Below are positions 4,250-62,583 of a stretch of 64,000 nt of DNA, one piece after another. How positions within the stretch are numbered: the first letter of the stretch is position 1; each line of letters begins with the position of its first letter. The position numbers were made by a program, and so were the translations under genes. The notes beneath the pieces were generated by a model. The model worked only from the letters and a program-made list of their open reading frames with translations, did not search any database and was not told where the DNA came from. The stretch is from the IMG/VR virus record IMGVR_UViG_3300037010_002844, positions 1-64,000 of that record; one strand, 5' to 3'. Source of the stretch: a virus.

Positions 4250-4945
4250 TCAGGAGACGCGGTGGAGGTGCGAGGTGTTCGGCCGCCGCTCGTCGACGGT
4301 GATGGTGTACTTGCGCTCGACCTTGCCGTTGTAATCGTCCCGCGAGACGGGGTAGACGCCCGTCTTGATGCCCGGCAGCAGCGAGGAGGGGATGTTGCGA
4401 TCCTGACCCACGCGCATACCCTTGCGGACCATGTCGGCGGCCTCGTGGAGAACACGCTCGATGCGGGCTTCCTCGGCCTTGCGTTCCTGCTCGGCCATGA
4501 ACGCCGCCTGCTCCTCCGCGGTGCGGATGCAGACCGCGATCCCGTCGCCGATTTCCGCGTTGATCGCCTCCGTGAGCTCGACGACCCTGGTGTAGAACTC
4601 CAGGCGCGCCTTGGCGAGGGCGGGCCGCGTGTCTCCGTGGCTGGGCCAGTTGACCTCGACGCGGAACTTGTAGTTCCGCCAGATCGACCCGTCCTCACGG
4701 GGCTTCAGGTCGCGGGTCCAGTCGATCGTATCGAACCGCACGTAGAGGTCACAGCTCGTGTCGATCTGCTCCGTGGTATCGCGGAACATCACGGACACGT
4801 TGCCCGCGGAGCCCGACTTGCGCTGCTCGCGGAGCGACTGCATGGTGTGCGGGGACAGGTACTTCTGCGCGATCTCGCTGGCAAGGATGAGGTCGATGGC
4901 CTTGTGAGCGCGGTCGATGATGAGGGGCTGTTGCATGGCGTTCAT
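4250..4945 (-). CDS. hypothetical protein (231 aa)
   Basis: ORF preceded by the conserved 35-nt leader repeat containing GGTAGGATAGA. Confidence 0.45.
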   Translation of the reverse strand: MNAMQQPLIIDRAHKAIDLILASEIAQKYLSPHTMQSLREQRKSGSAGNVSVMFRDTTEQIDTSCDLYVRFDTIDWTRDLKPREDGSIWRNYKFRVEVNWPSHGDTRPALAKARLEFYTRVVELTEAINAEIGDGIAVCIRTAEEQAAFMAEQERKAEEARIERVLHEAADMVRKGMRVGQDRNIPSSLLPGIKTGVYPVSRDDYNGKVERKYTITVDERRPNTSHLHRVS

Positions 4946-4981
4946 GAGTCTATCCTACCAGGATCAGAGATGAAGGTTCAC
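4946..4981 (-). promoter_or_regulatory. conserved 35-nt leader/promoter repeat, copy A
   Basis: On the minus strand it reads GTGAACCTTCATCTCTGATCCTGGTAGGATAGACTC then ATG. About 80% identical to 5272-5307. Confidence 0.5.
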
Positions 4982-5271
4982 AGCAGCGCCAGCGAGATCG
5001 CCAGCTCCAGTCCGGGCTCCGTCAGTGCAAACACGTGAGCACCTGACTTCGTCTTGCCGACGACCTCGATGAAGCCTCGGTGCACCAGGGACGCTCGCCA
5101 GCCGTACCCGTCTCGTCCGGAGGTGACGAGGGAGTGCCCCCACGTCGGGCTCTGGAGCGCTCGTCGCTTCTGTTGGATCACTGCGAAATCTTTCACCGTT
5201 GCCGTCTTGTTGCGGACGAGGGTGAACAGGATATCGCGGATCGTGGGAGAAATGCGGCTTGGATTGACCAT
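4978..5271 (-). CDS. small hypothetical protein, possible winged-helix DNA-binding (97 aa)
   Basis: ORF preceded by the second copy of the 35-nt leader repeat. No strong motif. Confidence 0.4.
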   Translation of the reverse strand: MVNPSRISPTIRDILFTLVRNKTATVKDFAVIQQKRRALQSPTWGHSLVTSGRDGYGWRASLVHRGFIEVVGKTKSGAHVFALTEPGLELAISLALL

Positions 5272-5307
5272 GAGACTATCCTACCAGGTTCAGCGTTGAA
5301 GATTCAC
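5272..5307 (-). promoter_or_regulatory. conserved 35-nt leader/promoter repeat, copy B
   Basis: On the minus strand it reads GTGAATCTTCAACGCTGAACCTGGTAGGATAGTCTC then ATG. Confidence 0.5.
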
Positions 5308-5460
5308 TGCGCGCCACAGGCGCTTGACCTCACGCCATAGTTCCTCGACTGTGCACGCAATCTCCTTGCGGAACTCTTTTGAGAGAGGACGCGAGGACTG
5401 TGCCCGGACGTTGTCCGTTAGGATCTCGATGTCCGCGTCGGTCAAGGGGCGCTTGCCATG
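5294..5460 (-). pseudogene. small gene with apparent 1-nt frame disruption just after the start
   Basis: The ATG at 5458-5460 sits in the conserved ACTAGAACCATGGCAA context but opens only 5 codons (MASAP*). A 56-codon frame lacking an ATG (KRPLTDADIEILTDNVRAQ...LWRAVNLQR*) continues in the +1 frame. Confidence 0.3.
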
Positions 5461-5540
5461 GTTCTAGTTTAACTCAGCGAACCCAAAGTTTGCACTGCGA
5501 GCACAGAATATTCGTAGAATCAAGCCATAAGATACCCCGT

Positions 5541-5630
5541 CGGGCCCATGAAAGCCCTCCCGTGGGTCCCCTGTGGGCACAGTTTTGGTTGCTCATGGGC
5601 CCGAGAAGTGTAAGAGCTCATGGGCCCAGG
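5541..5630. repeat. GCTCATGGGCCC iterons in a divergent intergenic region
   Basis: GCTCATGGGCCC occurs directly at 5591-5602 and 5615-5626. Its inverse GGGCCCATGA occurs at 5543-5552. Lies in the 480-bp spacer between the - block and the RecA-like gene. Confidence 0.5.
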
Positions 5631-5851
5631 GTACTATAAGACCATGAGCAACGCCTTCTAGAACTTCGTCAGGCAGCACGATACAGGCATCTCGCGGACC
5701 GGGTGTCCACGCGGCACCTCTCGGGTTCGATCTTGACCTGACTCACCTGTCGGAGCTGCTGCGGCTTGCCCAGCAGACGGGTTACCAGCTCTGCAACACG
5801 GGCTGGGATGACTGCATCATGGTCACCTAGACTTTCAGCGTTGGCTGATCG

Positions 5852-5880
5852 CGCTCGCGAGTGTGCAACCCATTGCACTG
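5852..5880. promoter_or_regulatory. 30-nt inverted-repeat operator, copy 2 of 3
   Basis: CGCTCGCGAGTGTGCAACCCATTGCACTG, about 60 nt upstream of the RecA-like gene. Confidence 0.6.
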
Positions 5881-5941
5881 GGTGAAAATCAGCGCCTGGG
5901 CGTGATAGACTGTAGACCTCCACCACCACGGGGTAAGATAT

Positions 5942-6706
5942 ATGGCGAGCATGAACCTCAACGTCGGAATCAAGGGCCTGAAGCAGGGCACCAACATCAT
6001 GGATGTTGAGGTGCCTGAGAAGCTGAAGCAGCGCATCAAGACCGGCATCACCTGGTTCGATGACGCGGTTGGTGGCCAGGGTTTCGTGCCCAGCTCCGTC
6101 ATGATGCTGACCGGTACGCCTGGCGCCGGCAAGACCACGATGCTGCTGCAGCTGGCGGACGCCATCACCGGGCAGGGGAACATCTGCCTCTACAACACCG
6201 GCGAGGAGTCGCTCTACCAGGTGCGCATGGTGACCGAGCGCCTGAAGTTGAAGCACGGCTTCATCTGTGGCCAGGACATCATGGTGCCCGACCTGCTGAA
6301 GCACGCGGACGCGCTGCGCAAGGCCAACCCGAAGAAGCAGGTCTTCATTCTGCAGGACTCGCTGCAGACCCTGGACGACGGCAAGTACTCCAACGGTACC
6401 AATGGCGCCACGCCGCTGCGCTGCGTCGAGATGCTGACCGACTGGGCGAAGAGCACCTACGGCATCGTCATCTTCATCGGACAGGTCAACAAGAGCGGCG
6501 AATTCGCCGGCAAGAACGGGATCCTCCACGCGATCGACGTCCGCGGGTCGCTCTACATCGACCAGGAGAAGAACAGCGAGACCTACGGGGAGCGCATCTT
6601 CGAGGTCACCAAGAACCGCTTCGGTTGCTCGGGCCGCGCCTACGTCCTCGGCTTCCAGGAGAAGGGGCTCTTCGAGAAGGGCAGCTTCGGCATGAACGAG
6701 CGCTGA
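5942..6706 (+). CDS. RecA-superfamily ATPase (RadA/KaiC/Sak4-like recombination or DnaB-C-like)
   Basis: TWFDDAVGG...VMMLTGTPGAGKTTMLLQL Walker A. Walker B-like VFILQDS. RecA-fold layout. Confidence 0.6.
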   Translation: MASMNLNVGIKGLKQGTNIMDVEVPEKLKQRIKTGITWFDDAVGGQGFVPSSVMMLTGTPGAGKTTMLLQLADAITGQGNICLYNTGEESLYQVRMVTERLKLKHGFICGQDIMVPDLLKHADALRKANPKKQVFILQDSLQTLDDGKYSNGTNGATPLRCVEMLTDWAKSTYGIVIFIGQVNKSGEFAGKNGILHAIDVRGSLYIDQEKNSETYGERIFEVTKNRFGCSGRAYVLGFQEKGLFEKGSFGMNER

Positions 6707-6789
6707 ACCCGCGATCTGGGGGCGCAATTCTCGGGAGAGACGGGGGCACGGGTCCTTAGGGACCCAAGCTCACGCGGCCAACGGGAGAC

Positions 6790-6830
6790 CAATAGCGCCG
6801 AACCCGGTTCGATTCCGGGGCGCTCCACGA
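6790..6830 (+). other. tRNA 3'-half-like fragment (T-arm plus 3' acceptor strand)
   Basis: CCCGG-TTCGATT-CCGGG is a canonical T-arm (GGTTCGATTCC), followed by GCGCTCC-A. No complementary 5' acceptor strand or anticodon arm lies within 110 nt upstream, so this is not a complete tRNA. Confidence 0.35.
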
Positions 6831-7124: not shown

Positions 7125-7158
7125 CCCCGGTCAACCCCATCTCAACACCGGGGTTTTT
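7125..7158 (+). terminator. intrinsic terminator (hairpin plus T5)
   Basis: CCCCGGT-N15-ACCGGGG followed by TTTTT. The T-run overlaps the stop codon of the convergent minus gene. Confidence 0.55.
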
Positions 7159-7576
7159 ACGGCTTCTTAGCCTGAGACTTGCGGAGGCGTTCCGCCTTCT
7201 CCTTGTCCTTCTTTTCTTTTTCCTCGGCACGCTCGTCTGAGGTCTTGACGGTGTGCAGGGACTTCTCATCATCGAGATAGTAATAGAGGGTACGCTTGGC
7301 AACGCCCAGCTCGCTGGCTGCCTTGGCAGCATCGCCCCCGTGACCGTTTACGGCGGCGCGGACCCTGTTGCGGAACTTCTCAGGGTTGAGCTGGCGCACT
7401 GCCCCGATGTCGGTGCGCGGCCCGCCGGGCTTGGCGTGGCGCTTCTTCTCGTCGAGGAGATCCAACGTCTCCTTGATGAACTCCTTCAACAGTGCTGCAC
7501 TCATGGGTCTAAGTAGGCAGCCCGCGCTCGCGGGTGTGCAACTCATTGCACAGTTGATACCCATGAGAGGGCCCAA
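7157..7576 (-). CDS. HTH DNA-binding protein (candidate regulator or small terminase-like)
   Basis: AAKAASELGVAKRTLYYYL is a helix-turn-helix. Basic/acidic KE-rich tail. Operator copy 3 lies directly upstream. Confidence 0.5.
   Translation of the reverse strand: MGPLMGINCAMSCTPASAGCLLRPMSAALLKEFIKETLDLLDEKKRHAKPGGPRTDIGAVRQLNPEKFRNRVRAAVNGHGGDAAKAASELGVAKRTLYYYLDDEKSLHTVKTSDERAEEKEKKDKEKAERLRKSQAKKP
7525..7553. promoter_or_regulatory. 30-nt inverted-repeat operator, copy 3 of 3
   Basis: CGCTCGCGGGTGTGCAACTCATTGCACAG, upstream of the minus-strand HTH gene. Confidence 0.6.
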
Positions 7577-7738
7577 TTCCGCAACTCACAGGTAGAGTTC
7601 ATAGTCGAAGTTCCACACGGGGATGCGGGCACGGGCCCAAGAAAAAGCTTCCAACCCCGCGGCAACCCCATCTCTTTGCCGGCATTTATGCAAATGTTCT
7701 GAGTGCAAAGCTCGCTTGGGAAGGGATAGAATCTGAAC

Positions 7739-27021: not shown

Positions 27022-27405
27022 TCAATGATCGTCTGCGGGCATGCGTTGCTTGAACGTCGTCACCATCTCCATTGTGTCCTTGACGGCCCGATCGTGCAAC
27101 AGCTTGGAACCCGAGCTCGCCAGCGCTGTGATTGCTGACATAAACAACTGCAGGCCCGCGGTGCAGACCAGGATAGTACCCGCGGCCACGTGGAATAGCG
27201 CTAGGACCAGCGCCAAGACCATGGTGAAGACCAGCATGGAAACTCGGCTGTTGCTGGCGCTAGCTGCGGTCACCCAGGCCATCGCTGCCTTCTCGAGGAC
27301 GATCATCTGCAACGTGAAGTTGATCTTCTGCTTGTCGCTGACCGTCTCCCAATCAACGTTTTCCAGCTTCTTCGCGAGTTGTTCCTTGGCCTCTTCCACC
27401 TTCAT
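27022..27405 (-). CDS. membrane protein translationally coupled to groEL (127 aa)
   Basis: Two predicted TM helices (AAMAWVTAASA..., VFTMVLALVLALFHVAAGTILVCTAGL) and an N-terminal coiled coil. Its ATG overlaps the groEL stop (ATGA). Confidence 0.45.
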   Translation of the reverse strand: MKVEEAKEQLAKKLENVDWETVSDKQKINFTLQMIVLEKAAMAWVTAASASNSRVSMLVFTMVLALVLALFHVAAGTILVCTAGLQLFMSAITALASSGSKLLHDRAVKDTMEMVTTFKQRMPADDH

Positions 27406-29009
27406 TCCTTCTTCTCCTCTTCCTCGACCACAACCGCATCGAGCGACAGGAACGTCACCGCGACGGAGACGGCGTTCTTCAGGGCGGTGCGAGTCACCTT
27501 GACGGGATCCACGACGCCAGCGGCGATTAGGTCCTCGTAGGTCTCCTTAGCTGCGTTGTAGCCCAGGGTGACGTCATTGAGGTGCAACTTGTGCAGCTCA
27601 TTGATGACCACGTCGGGAGAGACGCCCGCGTTGGTGACGATGCGCCGCAGGGGCGCAACACATGCAGCCTGCACCACCTTGGCACCGGCGCCGAACGTGG
27701 AGACTGGAATCTGCTGGCTCGCAGCCGCCAGTGCCATGCCGCCGCCGGGAACGATGCCCTCTTCTGCGGCAGCCTTCGTGGCATTGAGAGCGTCTTCAAT
27801 GCGGTACTTGCGTTCCACCATCTCGACTTCCGTCGCGCCACCGACGCGGATGATGGCGACGCCGCTCGCCAACTTGGCGATTCGCATCTTCAGCTTGGTG
27901 ACCTCATCCTGCGTCTTGGTGACGTCTTCCACCTGCGATCGCAGGTTGGCCACGTGAGCGTCGACCTCGGGCTTCGTGGTACCGGTGCCGACCAGCGTCG
28001 TGGACTTGGCGTCGACCGTGACACGCTTGATGGTGCCGAGGTCAGCCAACGTCAGTGTCTCGAGCTTCAATCCCTGCGATGCAGAGACGAGCTTTGCGCC
28101 CGTCAGGGTGGCGATGTCCTGCAGTAGCTCGTCGCGGTGCTGCCCATAGCCCGGTGCCTTAACGGCCACAATCGGCAGGTTGCCCTGGACACGGTTGAGA
28201 ACCAGGCCGTGCAGCGCCTCACCTTCCACGTCTTCTGCGATGATCAGCAGTGGCGTCCGCGTCTGGAGAACCTTCTCTAGGATTGGCACTAGGTCCTTCA
28301 ACACGCTGATCTTCTTGTCAGTGACCAGGACTCGGGCGCCCTCGTAGGTCGCCAACATCCTGTCGGGATTGGTGACGAAGTACGGCGATAGGTAGCCGCG
28401 GTCGAACTGCATACCTTCGACGACGTCGAGGCTGGTCGTCATGCCTTTGGCGTCCTCAACAGTGATAATACCGTCCTTACCGACCTTGCTCATGGCCTGA
28501 GCGATCAGTTGCCCGATTTTCTCGTCACCGTTCGCGGAGATAGTGCCAACCTGGGCGATCTCTTCCGCCGTCGTTAGCTGCTTCGCAGCGCGGATCAGCT
28601 CCTCATCGACAGTGGCCCGTGCCAGCTCGATGCCTTCACATAGTTCCTTCGCCGAGAAGCCAGCCTCCAGCAGTTTCAGGCCTTCCCTGACCATGGCGTG
28701 GGTCAACACCGTTGCTGTTGTCGTGCCGTCACCGGCGACCTCGTTGGTCTGCGATGCGGCCTCCCGGATCAGCTCTGCGCCCATCCTCGCGATGGGGTCC
28801 TTCAGCTTGACAGACTTGGAGACCGTGACGCCATCCTTGGTGACAACCGGCGCCTCGCCCTTGCGCTGGATCAGTACCGTTTTGCCCTTCGGGCCCAGCG
28901 TGCAGCTGACGGCCTCCGCGGCGATCTCGAGACCGTTGTAAAGCTTACGGCGGGCCTCGTCCTTGAAAACAACCTTGGTGACTGCGGGAGTGTCGACGTC
29001 TTGAAACAT
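27402..29009 (-). CDS. groEL: chaperonin GroEL (Cpn60), 535 aa
   Basis: Full-length match to GroEL (AAVEEGIVPGGG, DGTTTATVL). C-terminus lacks GGM repeats and ends EEEEKKE. Confidence 0.95.
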   Translation of the reverse strand: MFQDVDTPAVTKVVFKDEARRKLYNGLEIAAEAVSCTLGPKGKTVLIQRKGEAPVVTKDGVTVSKSVKLKDPIARMGAELIREAASQTNEVAGDGTTTATVLTHAMVREGLKLLEAGFSAKELCEGIELARATVDEELIRAAKQLTTAEEIAQVGTISANGDEKIGQLIAQAMSKVGKDGIITVEDAKGMTTSLDVVEGMQFDRGYLSPYFVTNPDRMLATYEGARVLVTDKKISVLKDLVPILEKVLQTRTPLLIIAEDVEGEALHGLVLNRVQGNLPIVAVKAPGYGQHRDELLQDIATLTGAKLVSASQGLKLETLTLADLGTIKRVTVDAKSTTLVGTGTTKPEVDAHVANLRSQVEDVTKTQDEVTKLKMRIAKLASGVAIIRVGGATEVEMVERKYRIEDALNATKAAAEEGIVPGGGMALAAASQQIPVSTFGAGAKVVQAACVAPLRRIVTNAGVSPDVVINELHKLHLNDVTLGYNAAKETYEDLIAAGVVDPVKVTRTALKNAVSVAVTFLSLDAVVVEEEEKKE

Positions 29010-29046
29010 ACAGCCATTCTACCGCGTGGGTAGGGCTCTGTACACA

Positions 29047-38336: not shown

Positions 38337-38613
38337 GATTGACTCTACCACTCTGACAGGTGAATTTCACAGCAATAGCTCAAGTCCCTCGTAGACCGGC
38401 GTCGTAGTGATCTTCGATAATGTCGGCCACCTTATCGAAAATCCGTTCTTGTGCCATGGTCTCAGTCTACCTATCAAGGGTCAAAGATTGCGCTGTGGCC
38501 CAAATGAGCCCACGGATCACGAGAATGACCCAAAAAGAGGAGGTGGTTTCCCCTTCTTGGGCCGTGCAGGCACTCACGTGGGTCACGCGGGGGCCGAGTT
38601 TGGGCCACAGGAA

Positions 38614-39789
38614 TCAGCCCGAGCCACTGGTGGCGGCCAAGATGATGCCGAGCATCGACCAATCGATAAAGACTTTGCCGGCGACGAGGTCATCGAGGTC
38701 GTACACCTCCACGTAAGTCAACTCAGTATCGTTGGCGATCCCGTGAGTGACGCCGGAACTGTGTTCGTCCTCCAGGCGATTCATTTCAAGTGCTGTCAAC
38801 TCAACAGCGTAGACCACGCCATGATGGGTCGACAGGGCAGCACACATCTGCCGCGAGCCCACGTAACGTAGCCGCGTGGGATCAATATTGATGCCCATCT
38901 CTTCTTCCAACTCGTGGGCCGCCACCACGCGGGCATCCTGACTCAACTTCAGCGAACTACCACCAGGAGCCTCATATACGAAGCCTGCATTGTTGCGAAC
39001 AGAGCTGCGGAACTCCTTGACAAGGGCGACCCTCGTCCCAAGGACATCGGAGTCCGGCCTGTGATACGCCACCACGACGAAGACGTCCGGCCGCGAGAAG
39101 ATGAACTCGTTGGTCTTGTTGCGTTTCTCGGCCGCCACATAGACATCAACCTTCAAGGCATAGCAGAAGGTCACTGCTTTGTTGGGCCCAATGCGGAACG
39201 ACCACAGCAACTGTGCGCCGTCTAAACGATTACCAACAGCCCTCTGGGCCGCGTGCCACGAGCGGAACGCAGGCTGGTGCCAGATATGCAGTGGAACTGA
39301 ACGTTCCCCGCCGAATCGAAGTGCCTTGTGCTTCGTCCTCTCGAGTGCCTGCAGCAGCGTGTTCTGGAGCGTGCTCTCTACTGGGACGCCCTCGAGACGA
39401 GCACGGTGCGCCAGGTAGCGCATGTTATAGGCCTCGGGCGGGTAACCCAGGACCGTCTTTCCGGCATCATAGTACATACCGAACTCGACGTTCGTCGTCA
39501 GGGCAGGTGCCACCTGCATGTCGCGAGGAACCCAGAAGACGACCACGTCGCTCATGTCGAGGTGTTTCTTTTCCCATTCGACCTGATGATCGAAGCCGCA
39601 GTTCCACTTACCATCGCGGGGCAGCGGCACGAAGACGACGCCATCATAGCCCATCTCTTCGAGGAGCTTAAGGGCATCCGGTCGCCAATTCAAATGCGCA
39701 TCAGAACGGGGAGAAGGCCCCGCCAAAAAGATGGACTTCTCAAACGAAGCCGGCGCCTCTTCGGCTGCATAGACGATCTGCATGTTCAT
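38614..39789 (-). CDS. nucleoside 2-deoxyribosyltransferase-like (DRTase/Rcl-like) domain fused to Nudix hydrolase
   Basis: N-terminus SIFLAGPSP...DGVVFVP has a DRTase-like Rossmann signature. C-terminus carries the Nudix box GGSSLKLSQDARVVAAHELEEEMGI. Confidence 0.55.
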   Translation of the reverse strand: MNMQIVYAAEEAPASFEKSIFLAGPSPRSDAHLNWRPDALKLLEEMGYDGVVFVPLPRDGKWNCGFDHQVEWEKKHLDMSDVVVFWVPRDMQVAPALTTNVEFGMYYDAGKTVLGYPPEAYNMRYLAHRARLEGVPVESTLQNTLLQALERTKHKALRFGGERSVPLHIWHQPAFRSWHAAQRAVGNRLDGAQLLWSFRIGPNKAVTFCYALKVDVYVAAEKRNKTNEFIFSRPDVFVVVAYHRPDSDVLGTRVALVKEFRSSVRNNAGFVYEAPGGSSLKLSQDARVVAAHELEEEMGINIDPTRLRYVGSRQMCAALSTHHGVVYAVELTALEMNRLEDEHSSGVTHGIANDTELTYVEVYDLDDLVAGKVFIDWSMLGIILAATSGSG

Positions 39790-42935: not shown

Positions 42936-43298
42936 TTACTGTTCCTTACGCTCAAGCTCGCGGAGCAGCACATTCTCTCGCATTTCGTCAGTGATCCAGG
43001 ATTCCCTGGAGCCATTTTCGGCCTCGTACTGCACTATACCAACTTCGTACATCTTCCAGGGCGAAATCCGAGCTTCCTTGCAGCGCTGCCACCAGGTGAC
43101 CAACGCATACAGTCCATGATCGAACGCGTAACGCTGCACGTCCTCGGTCAACATGTTGATTTCACCACGTTGACGGACGTACTCGTACTCCAGGATCTCT
43201 TCCCAGGTTGGGAGGCACAAAATGGTGTTGTTCCACTTGACGACCTCGGCGTAAACGCCGAACTCAGGATCGCCTGGCTTGGTGCGTTCCCGTTCCAT
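42936..43298 (-). CDS. hypothetical protein (120 aa)
   Basis: ORF only. Confidence 0.4.
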   Translation of the reverse strand: MERERTKPGDPEFGVYAEVVKWNNTILCLPTWEEILEYEYVRQRGEINMLTEDVQRYAFDHGLYALVTWWQRCKEARISPWKMYEVGIVQYEAENGSRESWITDEMRENVLLRELERKEQ

Positions 43299-43333
43299 GC
43301 CTCGAGTCTACCTTGTGAGTAGGCAGAGGTTCA

Positions 43334-43591
43334 CTACTTCTGCTTTGCCAATTTCACGAAGACATCATAAGGGATCATCTTCAGTGCCTTGACGGCCATA
43401 TCGACGGTCTTGAAGTATTCAACAAGGTCTTTTTCATCCTTGATGTCACCCTTCATCACTGCCTCGATGACGCGGTCCTGCAAGTCCTCGCGAATACGCT
43501 CCTTTTTCATGTAGTCCTCAGAGGCAGAGATCGCCTCGCGGATCAGGCTGCGCAGCCTCGACAATGACAGCTTCATCCGAGTAAGTATCAA
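43334..43591 (-). CDS. N-terminal targeting-motif family protein (85 aa)
   Basis: MKLSLSRLRSLIREAISASEDY. Confidence 0.45.
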   Translation of the reverse strand: MILTRMKLSLSRLRSLIREAISASEDYMKKERIREDLQDRVIEAVMKGDIKDEKDLVEYFKTVDMAVKALKMIPYDVFVKLAKQK

Positions 43592-54304: not shown

Positions 54305-55756
54305 TCAGGTAGCTGCTGCGACTCGCGATTTTGACCCGTGACACGGGCCGTGGTCGTCGAGGTACTTCTCGCCACCCGGAATTGCGATCATCACCTCAAC
54401 TGGCTGCCCACAGAACTTGCAAGTCACCTGGTCGCCGGTGCCGACCATGCGGGCACCGGCCTCGAGGACGATGGTGACGTTGCCCTTCTTGATCACCTTC
54501 TTGATGACCTTCGACTCGCCGACCGGATCCCAAATTTGAGTGTGATCAGAGCCCGTCTTCTTGACCTTTAGCTTGTCGCCATCCATCGAGACCCGACCTG
54601 TCTCACCCGGTTTGAACTCCGAGGCGCCCGACTTGCCGTAGACCTTACCCTTGTACCGCGTCACCACGGAGGCGCCACCGTACTTCGGTCCACCCTTGTA
54701 GACCTTGTACGTGTCCTTACCGGCCTTGGCAGCGGGAGCCGTCGCGGGTGGCGCTGCAGATGCGGCCGCGGAGGCGGTGACTTTGGGAGCCTCGCCGCCC
54801 TCGTCGCTGATAGGATTGATGATAGCCTGATTAGTCTTGCGGGCCTTGCGAATCGACTTGTCGAGGAACTCGCGGAAGCCGTCGAGCTCGCGGACGATGT
54901 CTGGATGATCCTTCATCAGCTGCACGTCGGCAGCCGTCAGTTCGCCCGACTTGGTCAACAGCTTGATGTAGTCATTTATGGCTGACAGAACGAGGATTTC
55001 GAGTTCCTCGGGAGATTCCTCCTCGAGCTGACCCAACCATTGGGCCTTCGCCATCGCCTTGTCGACGGCCTGCTTGGCGCCCGCAACTGAAAAGCCAAGC
55101 TCGGCAGCGATGTCCTGGAAGGAGGCGCCGCCCACGTCAGAGACAGTTTTGAACTTGCGAGCGTCATCGTCAGCCATCGCCTCGACCTCGTCAGCTTCTG
55201 GTTCCTCCAAAGGACCCTTCAGTGCCGACCTGAGGTCCTTGCGGTACTTCTCGGCCTTGCGCATGTACTCAGCACCGTGAACGCCCGTCGGGACCTTCGT
55301 GACAGGGGGCAGAGGTCCGACGACTGGACCAAACTCCTTCTGTTTCTTCGGAAAGGCCTCGGTCAGGTCGAGGTTATCACGCAGATGCTGCCTGACCGCA
55401 GCACGGATCACAGCCTCGGTCTTCGTGTCCTTCTTCATCTTGTCCCCATCATCCTTTTCTTGTGAAACCTCAAGGGCACCGACCAACTTCTCGTAGACAT
55501 CGGGCACCTTTTCATCGGGCAGATCTGCGCTAAGCGCATCGACAGCAACCTTGAGCTCTGCTCGGCTGTGTGGCCGAAAATCTGGGTTGCCGGGATTGGT
55601 CACGGCGGCCGAAGGATCGACCACGTCATTGACCTTGATTGGTTCATCGGTTTTGCCGGTGCCCTCAGGCACCAGAACGCGGCCAAGGTCCTTGTTGTCA
55701 AGGACCTCGCGGACCATCTCACGGATGGCCTCCTCGGTGACTGTGACCTTGCTCAT
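54305..55756 (-). CDS. hypothetical protein with C-terminal zinc ribbon (483 aa)
   Basis: CKFCGQPV...HGPCHG. N-terminus MSKVTVTEEAIREMVREVL is a weak match to the shared motif. Confidence 0.4.
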   Translation of the reverse strand: MSKVTVTEEAIREMVREVLDNKDLGRVLVPEGTGKTDEPIKVNDVVDPSAAVTNPGNPDFRPHSRAELKVAVDALSADLPDEKVPDVYEKLVGALEVSQEKDDGDKMKKDTKTEAVIRAAVRQHLRDNLDLTEAFPKKQKEFGPVVGPLPPVTKVPTGVHGAEYMRKAEKYRKDLRSALKGPLEEPEADEVEAMADDDARKFKTVSDVGGASFQDIAAELGFSVAGAKQAVDKAMAKAQWLGQLEEESPEELEILVLSAINDYIKLLTKSGELTAADVQLMKDHPDIVRELDGFREFLDKSIRKARKTNQAIINPISDEGGEAPKVTASAAASAAPPATAPAAKAGKDTYKVYKGGPKYGGASVVTRYKGKVYGKSGASEFKPGETGRVSMDGDKLKVKKTGSDHTQIWDPVGESKVIKKVIKKGNVTIVLEAGARMVGTGDQVTCKFCGQPVEVMIAIPGGEKYLDDHGPCHGSKSRVAAAT

Positions 55757-57020: not shown

Positions 57021-57616
57021 ATTCAGTTAGGCTTGTCACGCCCCTCCTTCTTCTTGCCTTCGGAGAGCTTGGAATCAAGAGAGTTGCCATTCATGACCTT
57101 AAGAATCTGCGCCTGGATGGCGTACAGCTCCGAAATCGCCTGATGATGCGACTGAACCGCCTGCGCGACTCCGACGACTGACTTGGTCAATATGTTGACG
57201 TTGTGTGCCAGGTCAAGGATGTCGTTCTTCAAGTCCATGACCTTCGCTGAAGTATCAATGGCCTTGTCGATTAGCTTGTTAAGCAAGCTCTTCTTTGGCG
57301 TCGGGCTTTCCATCTTGAGTTCCATCTTGTTCGTCCCTGTTGATCAAACTGTACAACGCCTCTGAGTCCAGTTCACCGAAACCTTCGATGCGACGCTTTT
57401 TGGGCTTGCCGTCGATCACCTCACGCAACTTGCGATTGACGAGGCCGTCGACGATGGCAATTGCCCGAGGCGAGCCTTCCGCCACTTGACGAGCAAACTC
57501 GTCAAAGACATCCTGCATCGAAATGCCGTGTTGGAAGAGCCGCGCCCGCAGGGCTGCGTGAACTTCCTTCGTCAGCTTGACGTGGATGCATTTTCGTGAC
57601 TGGAAGATGTCATGTC

Positions 57617-62037: not shown

Positions 62038-62583
62038 TCAGAGGCTCAAAAAGGCGAAGGGTCCTCGAACGCCCGCGCTGTACTCTGCTGCGGCCTCGAG
62101 GGCCACGCGGAGACGATCTTGGGGTTGCATGTTGCTGTTCCTCGTAGCGTACAGGGCGCCCAGAGCGATCTGGGCGCCGCAGCCCACGGCCGCGTAGTTC
62201 TCACGGGGTCGACCCACCTGGTAGTCCTCTTCAACCACGTAAATCTTACCCTTGAAGCCAACGATGAAGGACGACTCATGCTCTTCCAGCTCGTTCTCCT
62301 TCTTCGCCGCGCCCTTCTCATTCAGGAGTTCTCTGACAGCATCAACAAAGTCATTGACCAGGTACTCCATGTCGTCGGTCTGCTTCACCGATTGCTCGGG
62401 GACCTCGAGCGAGTAGCGTAGCAACTGACCGATGCGGAAGGACCCGCAGAACCCCATGATGAGGTTCTCGTTGATAAAGACCTTCTCATCGGCCCGGTTG
62501 CAGATGCTCAAACCATCGATGCCTGCAGAGTCACCACCGACCCAGACAGTACCCTCGTGTTCCAGTGCGACAATGCAGGTCAT
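62038..62583 (-). CDS. HslV/proteasome-beta-like Ntn hydrolase, paralog 1 (181 aa)
   Basis: MTCIVALEHEGTVWVGGDSA aligns with HslV [20 protein letters not shown]. Thr1 follows the initiator Met. Conserved GxxG/GSG segments. Confidence 0.6.
   Translation of the reverse strand: MTCIVALEHEGTVWVGGDSAGIDGLSICNRADEKVFINENLIMGFCGSFRIGQLLRYSLEVPEQSVKQTDDMEYLVNDFVDAVRELLNEKGAAKKENELEEHESSFIVGFKGKIYVVEEDYQVGRPRENYAAVGCGAQIALGALYATRNSNMQPQDRLRVALEAAAEYSAGVRGPFAFLSL

Follow-up and report, generated by a model that had tools for sequence, protein, structure and literature searches.

Does the short repeat that lies upstream of a RecA-fold ATPase gene in a 64-kb stretch of phage DNA (the window) mark a start of replication, or does it belong to the control of transcription? 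The initial annotation had left the choice between a replication origin and a complex operator array. The repeat is genuine and locally unique, and most likely its explanation is an ordinary one, namely regulatory sites in a promoter. To our knowledge, almost nothing is known about the start and control of early transcription in uncultivated huge phages. The locus offers a concrete and testable control region, with a rigid class of leaderless promoters, repeats in the promoter spacer and a candidate winged-helix regulator. We know of no replication start mapped so far in this phage group, and an origin at this locus, if true, would mark one.

The source phage and the repeat copies

The source of the window is a huge freshwater phage that has not been cultivated. 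Megablast of positions 4900-6800 against 50,697 phage records gave no nucleotide match. Genes for a chaperonin, a GH25 lysozyme and a protein carrying major-vault-protein domains lie in the window; for the same region of an identical public contig, a T4-type capsid protein has been called as well. Relatives of the vault-like protein were found only in metagenomic huge phages of 462-735 kb, and protein searches lead to LR756500-3. Proteins identical to those of the phage occur on contigs of up to 309 kb, thus its genome measures at least 309 kb. The window together with flanks taken from identical public contigs gave 82.6 kb of this genome. About 90 related loci were found in freshwater metagenomes, the identity of the RecA-fold ATPase being 49-91%. 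Five independent contigs of the same phage are identical over 5272-5941, with no within-population variation among them, and hence the phage population gives no sign of constraint on the repeat copies.

Several other features of this genome may be recorded here. The vault-like protein (859 aa, 11150-13729) combines an SPFH domain with the shoulder and repeat domains of the major vault protein, and its homologues in the phage collection are the metagenomic huge phages LR756500-3 only. The phage encodes a Cpn60 chaperonin (27402-29009) and a weak proteasome-subunit-like protein (62038-62583). Thymidylate synthase, thymidine kinase, Fe-superoxide dismutase and CCA-adding/polyA-polymerase-like enzymes are encoded inside the window and just past its right end (beyond 64000, L105/L106). 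A tRNA-like element at 6743-6828, in a 450-bp gap, has a GGTTCGATTCC T-loop and a ...GCTCCA end; a relaxed threshold was needed for ARAGORN to call it (86 nt, 'Gly'), and it has no Rfam match.

The locus under study is a cluster of small early genes. The gap between called genes extends over 5272-5941 (670 bp), or over 5446-5941 (496 bp) if a 51-codon ORF with a TTG start (orf51) is counted. The units on its two sides diverge, as was described initially with a spacer of 480 bp. On the right side the RecA-fold ATPase recognised earlier (5942-6706, plus strand) is a RadA/Sms-like, KaiC/DnaB_C-like protein of 254 aa. It has KaiC, AAA_25 and DnaB_C domain matches, the last one weak and below the Pfam cut-off, and tblastn leads to RadA/Sms.

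The 10-mer TCATGGGCCC is present in three exact copies within 86 bp, at 5593-5602, at 5618-5627 and, inverted, at 5542-5551. The 12-mer GCTCATGGGCCC has exactly two direct copies, 5591-5602 and 5616-5627, with a start-to-start distance of 25 nt. The initial annotation had seen both, and placed the second copy at 5615-5626 with a spacing of 24 nt, which is one position short. The inverted copy that it reported is present as GGGCCCATGA, at 5542-5551 instead of 5543-5552.

Four segments, S1 to S4, can be distinguished. S1 is the inverted copy (5540-5551, its minus strand being TCATGGGCCCGA). It makes a perfect 12-nt inverted repeat with S2, TCGGGCCCATGA at 5540-5551 against TCATGGGCCCGA at 5593-5604, the two being 41 nt apart. 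S2 (5588-5604, plus strand) is the fullest copy, GTTGCTCATGGGCCCGA, and includes the first 12-mer. S3 (5616-5627, plus strand) is the second direct copy. The fourth element, which had been missed, is a partial inverted copy: S4 (5642-5652, minus strand), CCATGAGCAAC, is an 11/11 complement of GTTGCTCATGG at 5588-5598. S2 can pair with S1 through its right 12 nt and with S4 through its left 11 nt, and S4 has only GCTCATGG in common with the other copies. The direct copies stand 13 nt apart and are not contiguous, and the inverted copy lies 51 bp away. Only the GGGCCC core is dyad-symmetric; S3 is palindromic at 10 of its 12 positions and S1 and S2 are less so.

The clustered repeat is not a product of chance. 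The exact 10-mer occurs nowhere else, either in the 64-kb window or in the 82.6 kb of this genome. In the window this locus is the only one where a 10-mer recurs to give three occurrences inside 100 bp, and a comparable case appeared in one of 200 dinucleotide-preserving shuffles. GGGCCC alone is scattered, with 28 sites in the window. It had been considered initially that the repeat could be spread through coding regions as a compositional artefact; the 10-mer was found only here. The direct copies are identical at 12 of 12 positions and their flanks differ, at about 7 positions per 25-nt unit. The probability of such an unchanged 12-nt block arising by chance is about 0.004-0.007 by a hand estimate made without a tool. 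Since an identical 12-nt block with sharp borders is left between diverged flanks, plain tandem duplication is a poor fit. An IMG/VR scan for two 10-mers 5-35 nt apart, in a collection that does not hold this phage, returned unrelated contigs only. An 86-codon ORF (5379-5639) was rejected as coding sequence; it is uncalled by the source pipelines, and the two copies stand in different frames. Two other clusters, of 8-mers present three times within 100 bp, were seen at 54484-54563 (CTTCTTGA) and 57435-57504 (CTCGTCAA), in the densely ORF-covered 47-64 kb.

Divergent leaderless promoters around the copies

A scan with a simple sigma-70 consensus found no promoter. Gene starts and alignments yielded the motif that the phage itself uses. 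When the sequences ahead of the ATPase gene were aligned among the relatives, a conserved GTGCAAAG, a spacer and GGTAnAnT appeared. About 20 promoters in the window and the 10 kb upstream of it (contig L099, 1-9994) have a rigid geometry: a GTGCAA-like -35, 18 nt, TAnnnT, 6 nt and ATG. In the window they include 4945-4981, 5271-5307, 5459-5495, 5608-5644, 7703-7739, 29009-29045 and 43298-43334, among others. In the 11 promoters of the first matrix the ATG, 36 nt past the first G, falls on a gene start that was called independently or on the start of a long ORF. Because the ATG stands at this fixed distance and coincides with gene starts, these promoters are expected to make leaderless mRNAs, and in this huge phage the early genes are apparently leaderless. 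A '30-nt operator' (ctatcctaccagg...) reported initially at 4950 and 5276 is probably the promoter consensus itself read on the other strand. One subclass of these promoters has a common spacer, CTTCAACnnCGAnCnGGG.

Two promoters of this class diverge from the region of the copies. The rightward promoter P_R (5608-5646, plus strand) reads GTGTAA-N18-TACTAT-AAGACC-ATG, with the -35 at 5608-5613, the -10 at 5632-5637 and the ATG at 5644-5646, 36 nt from the first G. The leftward promoter P_L (5457-5495, minus strand) has GTGCAA at 5495-5490, TAAACT at 5471-5466 and ATG at 5459-5457. With a position matrix made from 20 other promoters, P_R ranked 26th and P_L 17th among the 147,906 positions scored. 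The ATPase gene has a promoter of its own (5882-5911, plus strand; -35 GTGAAA at 5882-5887, -10 TAGACT at 5906-5911), whose motif is kept in all the relatives aligned.

S1-S4 are placed in the spacer between P_L and P_R. Relative to the P_R start at 5644, S3 occupies -28 to -17 and fills the 18-nt spacer between -35 and -10. The 12-mer of S2 covers -53 to -42 and ends 5 nt upstream of the -35. S4 lies at -2 to +9, over the start point and the ATG. S1 stands at -104 to -93 from the P_R start and at -81 to -92 from the P_L start. As the copies are in the spacer of divergent promoters, the P_R and P_L transcripts would be without S1-S3. S2 and S3 were also considered as leaderless start sites themselves and were rejected, there being no TAnnnT at the right distance.

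The ATG of P_R is without a real gene and opens a five-codon ORF, MSNAF* (5644-5661, plus strand); the +1 frame is open for 60 codons over 5648-5830. This frame starts ATPS and its counterpart in the related locus L011 starts MATDP, a weak homology (E 0.03 in a tiny search space). From a reading of the sequence, this suggests that a single A has been inserted after the P_R ATG, and the same extra A completes the complementarity of S2 and S4. On the left, the ATG of P_L opens a five-codon ORF, MASAP* (5442-5459, minus strand), whose TGA overlaps the TTG of orf51 (5290-5445), which is in a different frame. MASAP* and MSNAF* could be either short leaderless upstream ORFs, coupled on the left through the TTGA overlap, or two frameshifted or broken genes. 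Longer open frames, shifted by one nucleotide, are present behind both five-codon ORFs.

Since both promoters open just five-codon ORFs, the unit may be decaying. This brings in the explanation that the copies have no function and were left by recent local template switching and slippage in a decaying phage-specific cassette, which we consider rather unlikely. The two five-codon frames agree with it, and the extra A disrupts the frame while making S4 a perfect complement of S2, as quasi-palindrome correction would. For orf51, the 60-codon frame and a nearby 97-aa gene no homologue was found in any related locus, which points to fast turnover, and the perfect copies suggest youth. However, such a history would have to consist of three or more separate events, by which overlapping parts of a single 17-mer came to lie within 110 bp. 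Moreover, the copies occupy positions relevant to the promoter (in its spacer, at the upstream border of the -35 and over +1), and P_R retains the exact 36-nt geometry.

Proposed operator-like sites at P_R and a candidate binder

It is quite possible, and we propose it tentatively, that the 12-mer copies are putative operator-like sites controlling P_R. The reading is supported by the overlap of the sites with the core promoter, S3 being in the spacer, S2 5 nt before the -35 and S4 over +1. It is supported also by the copies being exact, clustered and locally unique with sharp borders. A sequence-specific DNA-binding protein would bind S2 and S3, and perhaps S4, and would keep RNA polymerase off P_R; the inverted S1 could serve cooperative or looped binding.

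Comparison with the related loci adds to this. P_R is orthologous to a promoter in L011, whose ATPase is 89% identical, and the two have a common -35 stretch, CGAGAAGTG(C/T)AA. In L011 the palindrome TTGAAAGTCACTTTCAA (TTGAAAG-N3-CTTTCAA) ends 3 nt before this stretch, which is the place of S2 in the window, and the L011 promoter spacer is unrelated to S3. Palindromes of the form TTGAAAG-N3-CTTTCAA adjoin promoters in many relatives and are absent from the window. The replacement of a palindrome by S2 at an orthologous position, and the unrelated spacer in the place of S3, support the operator reading. Different sets of palindromes take the same place in these genomes, which suggests that cis sites, and perhaps the proteins that bind them, are swapped as modules.

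Among known systems the tripartite operators O_R and O_L of phage lambda are the nearest comparison. In lambda too a small DNA-binding protein is encoded close to a region of divergent promoters, where several short sites, about 23-25 bp apart, overlap the -35, the spacer and the -10 of an early promoter. The lambda sites, however, are 17-bp quasi-palindromes, all of one orientation class, to which known dimers bind, and the repressor gene is itself transcribed from the region under control. In the window the putative sites are of 12 nt, weakly symmetric, with one inverted 51 bp away, and the gene of the candidate regulator stands behind a promoter of its own. A further comparison is with the anti-CRISPR promoters that Aca proteins autorepress and with the p4 sites of phi29, at its divergent A2c/A2b-A3 promoters. 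These too have inverted repeats in or beside the core promoter of an early small-gene operon, with a small helix-turn-helix protein encoded in the same unit. In contrast to these systems, no match to an Aca family was found here and the sites flank P_R, not the promoter of the winged-helix gene.

The protein in question, of 97 aa, is encoded at 4978-5271 on the minus strand, about 270 bp from the sites, behind its own leaderless promoter (-35 at 5307-5302). A word-indexed search of 5.8 billion proteins returned no relative, and an exhaustive search returned four small remote homologues with 36-44% identity. The single-sequence model was unusable (pLDDT 54); with the homologue alignment a winged-helix model was obtained (pLDDT 76). 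Its best fold matches were RosR, AspA, MarR-family proteins and STIV F93, all winged-helix DNA binders, with TM about 0.6, a Foldseek probability of about 1 and a weak E of about 0.02; a profile search against PDB sequences gave noise only. The homologue with 44% identity, in L102, is the first leaderless gene at the equivalent rightward promoter, and the control region there is of the same kind, with two TTGAAAG palindromes and 21-nt arms.

Judging from this model, the 97-aa winged-helix protein is one candidate binder; the binder could otherwise be a protein conserved in the lineage, which was considered because the 12-mer resembles the CTCACGTGGGTC-type palindrome arms of related phages. 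The 12-mer was absent from all 88 related loci searched, and the occurrence of both the 12-mer and the winged-helix protein in this phage alone among them favours the operator reading. This argument from co-occurrence is weakened by the same resemblance, since those relatives lack the winged-helix gene. The weak dyad symmetry of the 12-mer also counts against operator sites, being unusual for a dimeric winged-helix protein, and so does S4, which matches a different part of S2 than S1 does, as would base-pairing partners more than repeated sites for a single protein.

The AT-hook protein (7739-8404) and the HTH protein (7157-7504), which had been named initially as possible binders, are conserved in relatives that are without the 12-mer. 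The targets of AT-hooks are AT-rich minor grooves rather than GGGCCC. The window has a 26-nt repeat, GCTCGCGGGTGTGCAACTCATTGCAC, at 772-797, 5853-5878 and 7526-7551, with one more copy about 2,770 nt upstream of the window start (L099 ~7215-7240). The repeat consists of a GC hairpin and a GTGCAA-N4-TTGCAC palindrome and lies beside -35 elements; as one copy is at the promoter of the HTH protein, the repeat may be the operator of that protein.

Related control regions, hairpins and the origin question

The proposed operator-like sites have to be seen beside the control regions that the relatives L011, L012, L017, L066, L077 and L102 have at the same place upstream of the RecA-fold ATPase gene. 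These regions have the same leaderless promoter class, a homologous core and block and inverted-repeat arms of the CTCAYG..GGG..C type. Between the divergent promoters the relatives carry about 180 GC-rich bp with a long inverted repeat, centred on a palindromic -10-like GGTAnnnTACC. In L012, L017, L066, L077 and L102 the arms are about 9 to 23 nt long, 36-53 nt apart and partly different in sequence (arms and arm spacing of L077 were read by eye). They fold as long hairpins on both strands, with z of -2.2 to -5.2, which argues that they are DNA palindromes. The relatives thus have one long GGTAnnnTACC-centred quasi-palindrome flanked by TTGAAAG-N3-CTTTCAA palindromes, whereas the window is without those palindromes and has three or four copies of its own 12-mer, one inside the promoter spacer.

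The control region of these relatives is mirror-symmetric (L011 2369-2573, L012 2580-2710, L017 2030-2235, L066 1-210, L077 1195-1395, L102 316-543). Going inward from either end, an outward leaderless promoter is followed by the TTGAAAG-N3-CTTTCAA palindrome, an ATTAYAC-N5-GTRTAAT palindrome and the long quasi-palindrome centred on GGTAnnnTACC.

What the window has kept is a conserved intergenic module (5527-5580, plus strand), a -10-like core TAAGATACCCCGTC followed by the block GAAAGCCCTCCCGTGGGTCCCCTGTGGGCAC (nhmmer E 1.6e-12). Homologues of this 55-nt core and block were found in L011, L012, L076, L077, L066 and L017 (nhmmer E down to 1e-13) and, in the same genome, at L099 6651-6707, L099 7989-8044 and window 38551-38595; related intergenic modules number at least four in 74 kb. 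The module arms have a common loose motif, CTCACG(T)GGG(T)C, of which CTCATGGGCCC in the window is a variant. At a paralogous site (L099 ~7975), GTGAAT, CTCACGGGCCCA and the -10-like core follow each other in the order seen in P_R, and S3, the P_R -10 and S4 can be read, from their sequence, as a compact arm-core-arm design. CTCAYGKG was tried as a genome-wide motif and set aside: there are 30 sites against 13.6 expected, and 24 of the 30 lie in coding sequence by a rough gene map, so that the excess is mostly compositional. The extra module copies (38490-38620, L099 6615-6740, L099 7950-8085) are situated between a stop codon and the next promoter, and may be terminators or insulators. The one at 38490-38620 makes a 110-nt hairpin with z -4.4 on the minus strand.

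Likewise, S1 could pair with S2 and S3 with S4, giving two neighbouring stem-loops. These might form in DNA, as a cruciform or in single strands, or in an RNA whose start lies upstream, and would be the window's version of the long quasi-palindromes that the relatives have in the same spacer. Such hairpins could act as an insulator or terminator, as a target of a structure-specific protein, or by sequestering the P_R start codon in read-through transcripts. We regard this explanation as doubtful, while giving it real weight. Folding of the locus gives exactly two hairpins, 5541-5603 and 5616-5649, with z of -2.4 to -3.4 on either strand. Each partner of S2 pairs with a different part of it, the relatives keep inverted repeats that differ in sequence, and the module copies elsewhere in this genome take the place expected of a terminator. 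A promoter-like TTGCAC-N19-TAGAAT at 5490-5520 could start an RNA across all four segments, but its spacer is 19 nt, not the 18 nt usual for the class, and S1-S3 are outside the transcripts of P_L and P_R. Both strands fold equally, which gives no pointer to RNA. The modules of the relatives give a weak consensus RNA structure (-1.2 kcal/mol), their arms not aligning in register. No U-tract or run of T follows the hairpins, no terminator was called at 5540-5660, and the locus is without an upstream gene to terminate. The window has no Rfam match at the gathering score, and in 5200-6000 the hits were at chance level only.

The symmetry of these regions allows a wider reading, in which the 12-mers are this phage's variant of a dyad-symmetric element found throughout the lineage. 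That element could comprise quasi-palindromes on a two-faced GGTAnnnTACC core, flanking operator palindromes, divergent leaderless promoters and the RecA-fold ATPase gene beside them. It would act either as a transcription-coupled bidirectional origin, to be likened to the HSV oriL palindrome and T4 oriF, or as an undescribed palindrome-based switch of early genes. We hold this to be improbable.

The origin and the packaging or centromere readings are the least supported of all. That the 12-mers are iterons for an initiator, beside the RecA-fold ATPase, is very unlikely. Direct and inverted repeats, unique in 82.6 kb, in a large divergent intergenic region would suit an origin, as would the adjoining ATPase with its weak DnaB_C match and the highly dyad-symmetric region that the relatives have at the same place. 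The iterons of plasmids and lambdoid phages are likewise short repeats between genes, close to one that may take part in DNA metabolism. They usually measure 17-22 bp and number four or more, with whole-helical-turn phasing, an AT-rich unwinding element and an initiator gene nearby, and none of these features was recognised at the locus. There are just two direct 12-nt copies at 25 bp and one inverted copy, the sites overlap a promoter, and 74 kb contain at least four related modules. No AT-rich unwinding stretch is present, since 40-bp windows across 5400-5990 reach an AT fraction of at most 0.57, where the 95th percentile over the whole window is 0.575 and the maximum 0.75. No initiator or Rep-type family was recognised among the neighbours scanned, the adjoining gene being that of the ATPase. 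The cumulative GC skew, profiled over 74 kb of a genome of at least 309 kb, has no turn at 5.5 kb; it is flat from -10 to +26 kb with a shallow local minimum near 3 kb, and its only strong change, at about 26 kb, is where gene orientation changes. Of the two options offered by the initial annotation, the operator array agrees with the anatomy, the copies being in the spacer, upstream of the -35 and over +1 between divergent promoters, and the origin is not supported by these tests.

Another protein-DNA assembly site, such as a terminase recognition site (cosB- or pac-like) or a centromere of the TubR/tubC or AspA type to which a small winged-helix protein would bind, is more unlikely still, to the point of being far-fetched. 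Two direct copies and one inverted resemble lambda cosB, which has sites in mixed orientation, and TubR binds repeats of 12 bp. AspA and the pNOB8 centromere-binding protein are both among the fold matches of the 97-aa protein. Against this, terminase, tubulin-like and ParA-like genes were not recognised among the neighbours scanned, the region is a small early-gene cluster with the sites embedded in a promoter, and the copies are 13 nt apart, not contiguous as in a TubR/tubC centromere.

A separate tandem array of ATTTAGGGGGCC, in 3.9 copies, lies at L099 767-813, about 9.2 kb upstream of the window, with further TTTAGGGGGC nearby. It falls in a 965-bp stretch without a called gene and is a better-looking iteron candidate than the 12-mers.
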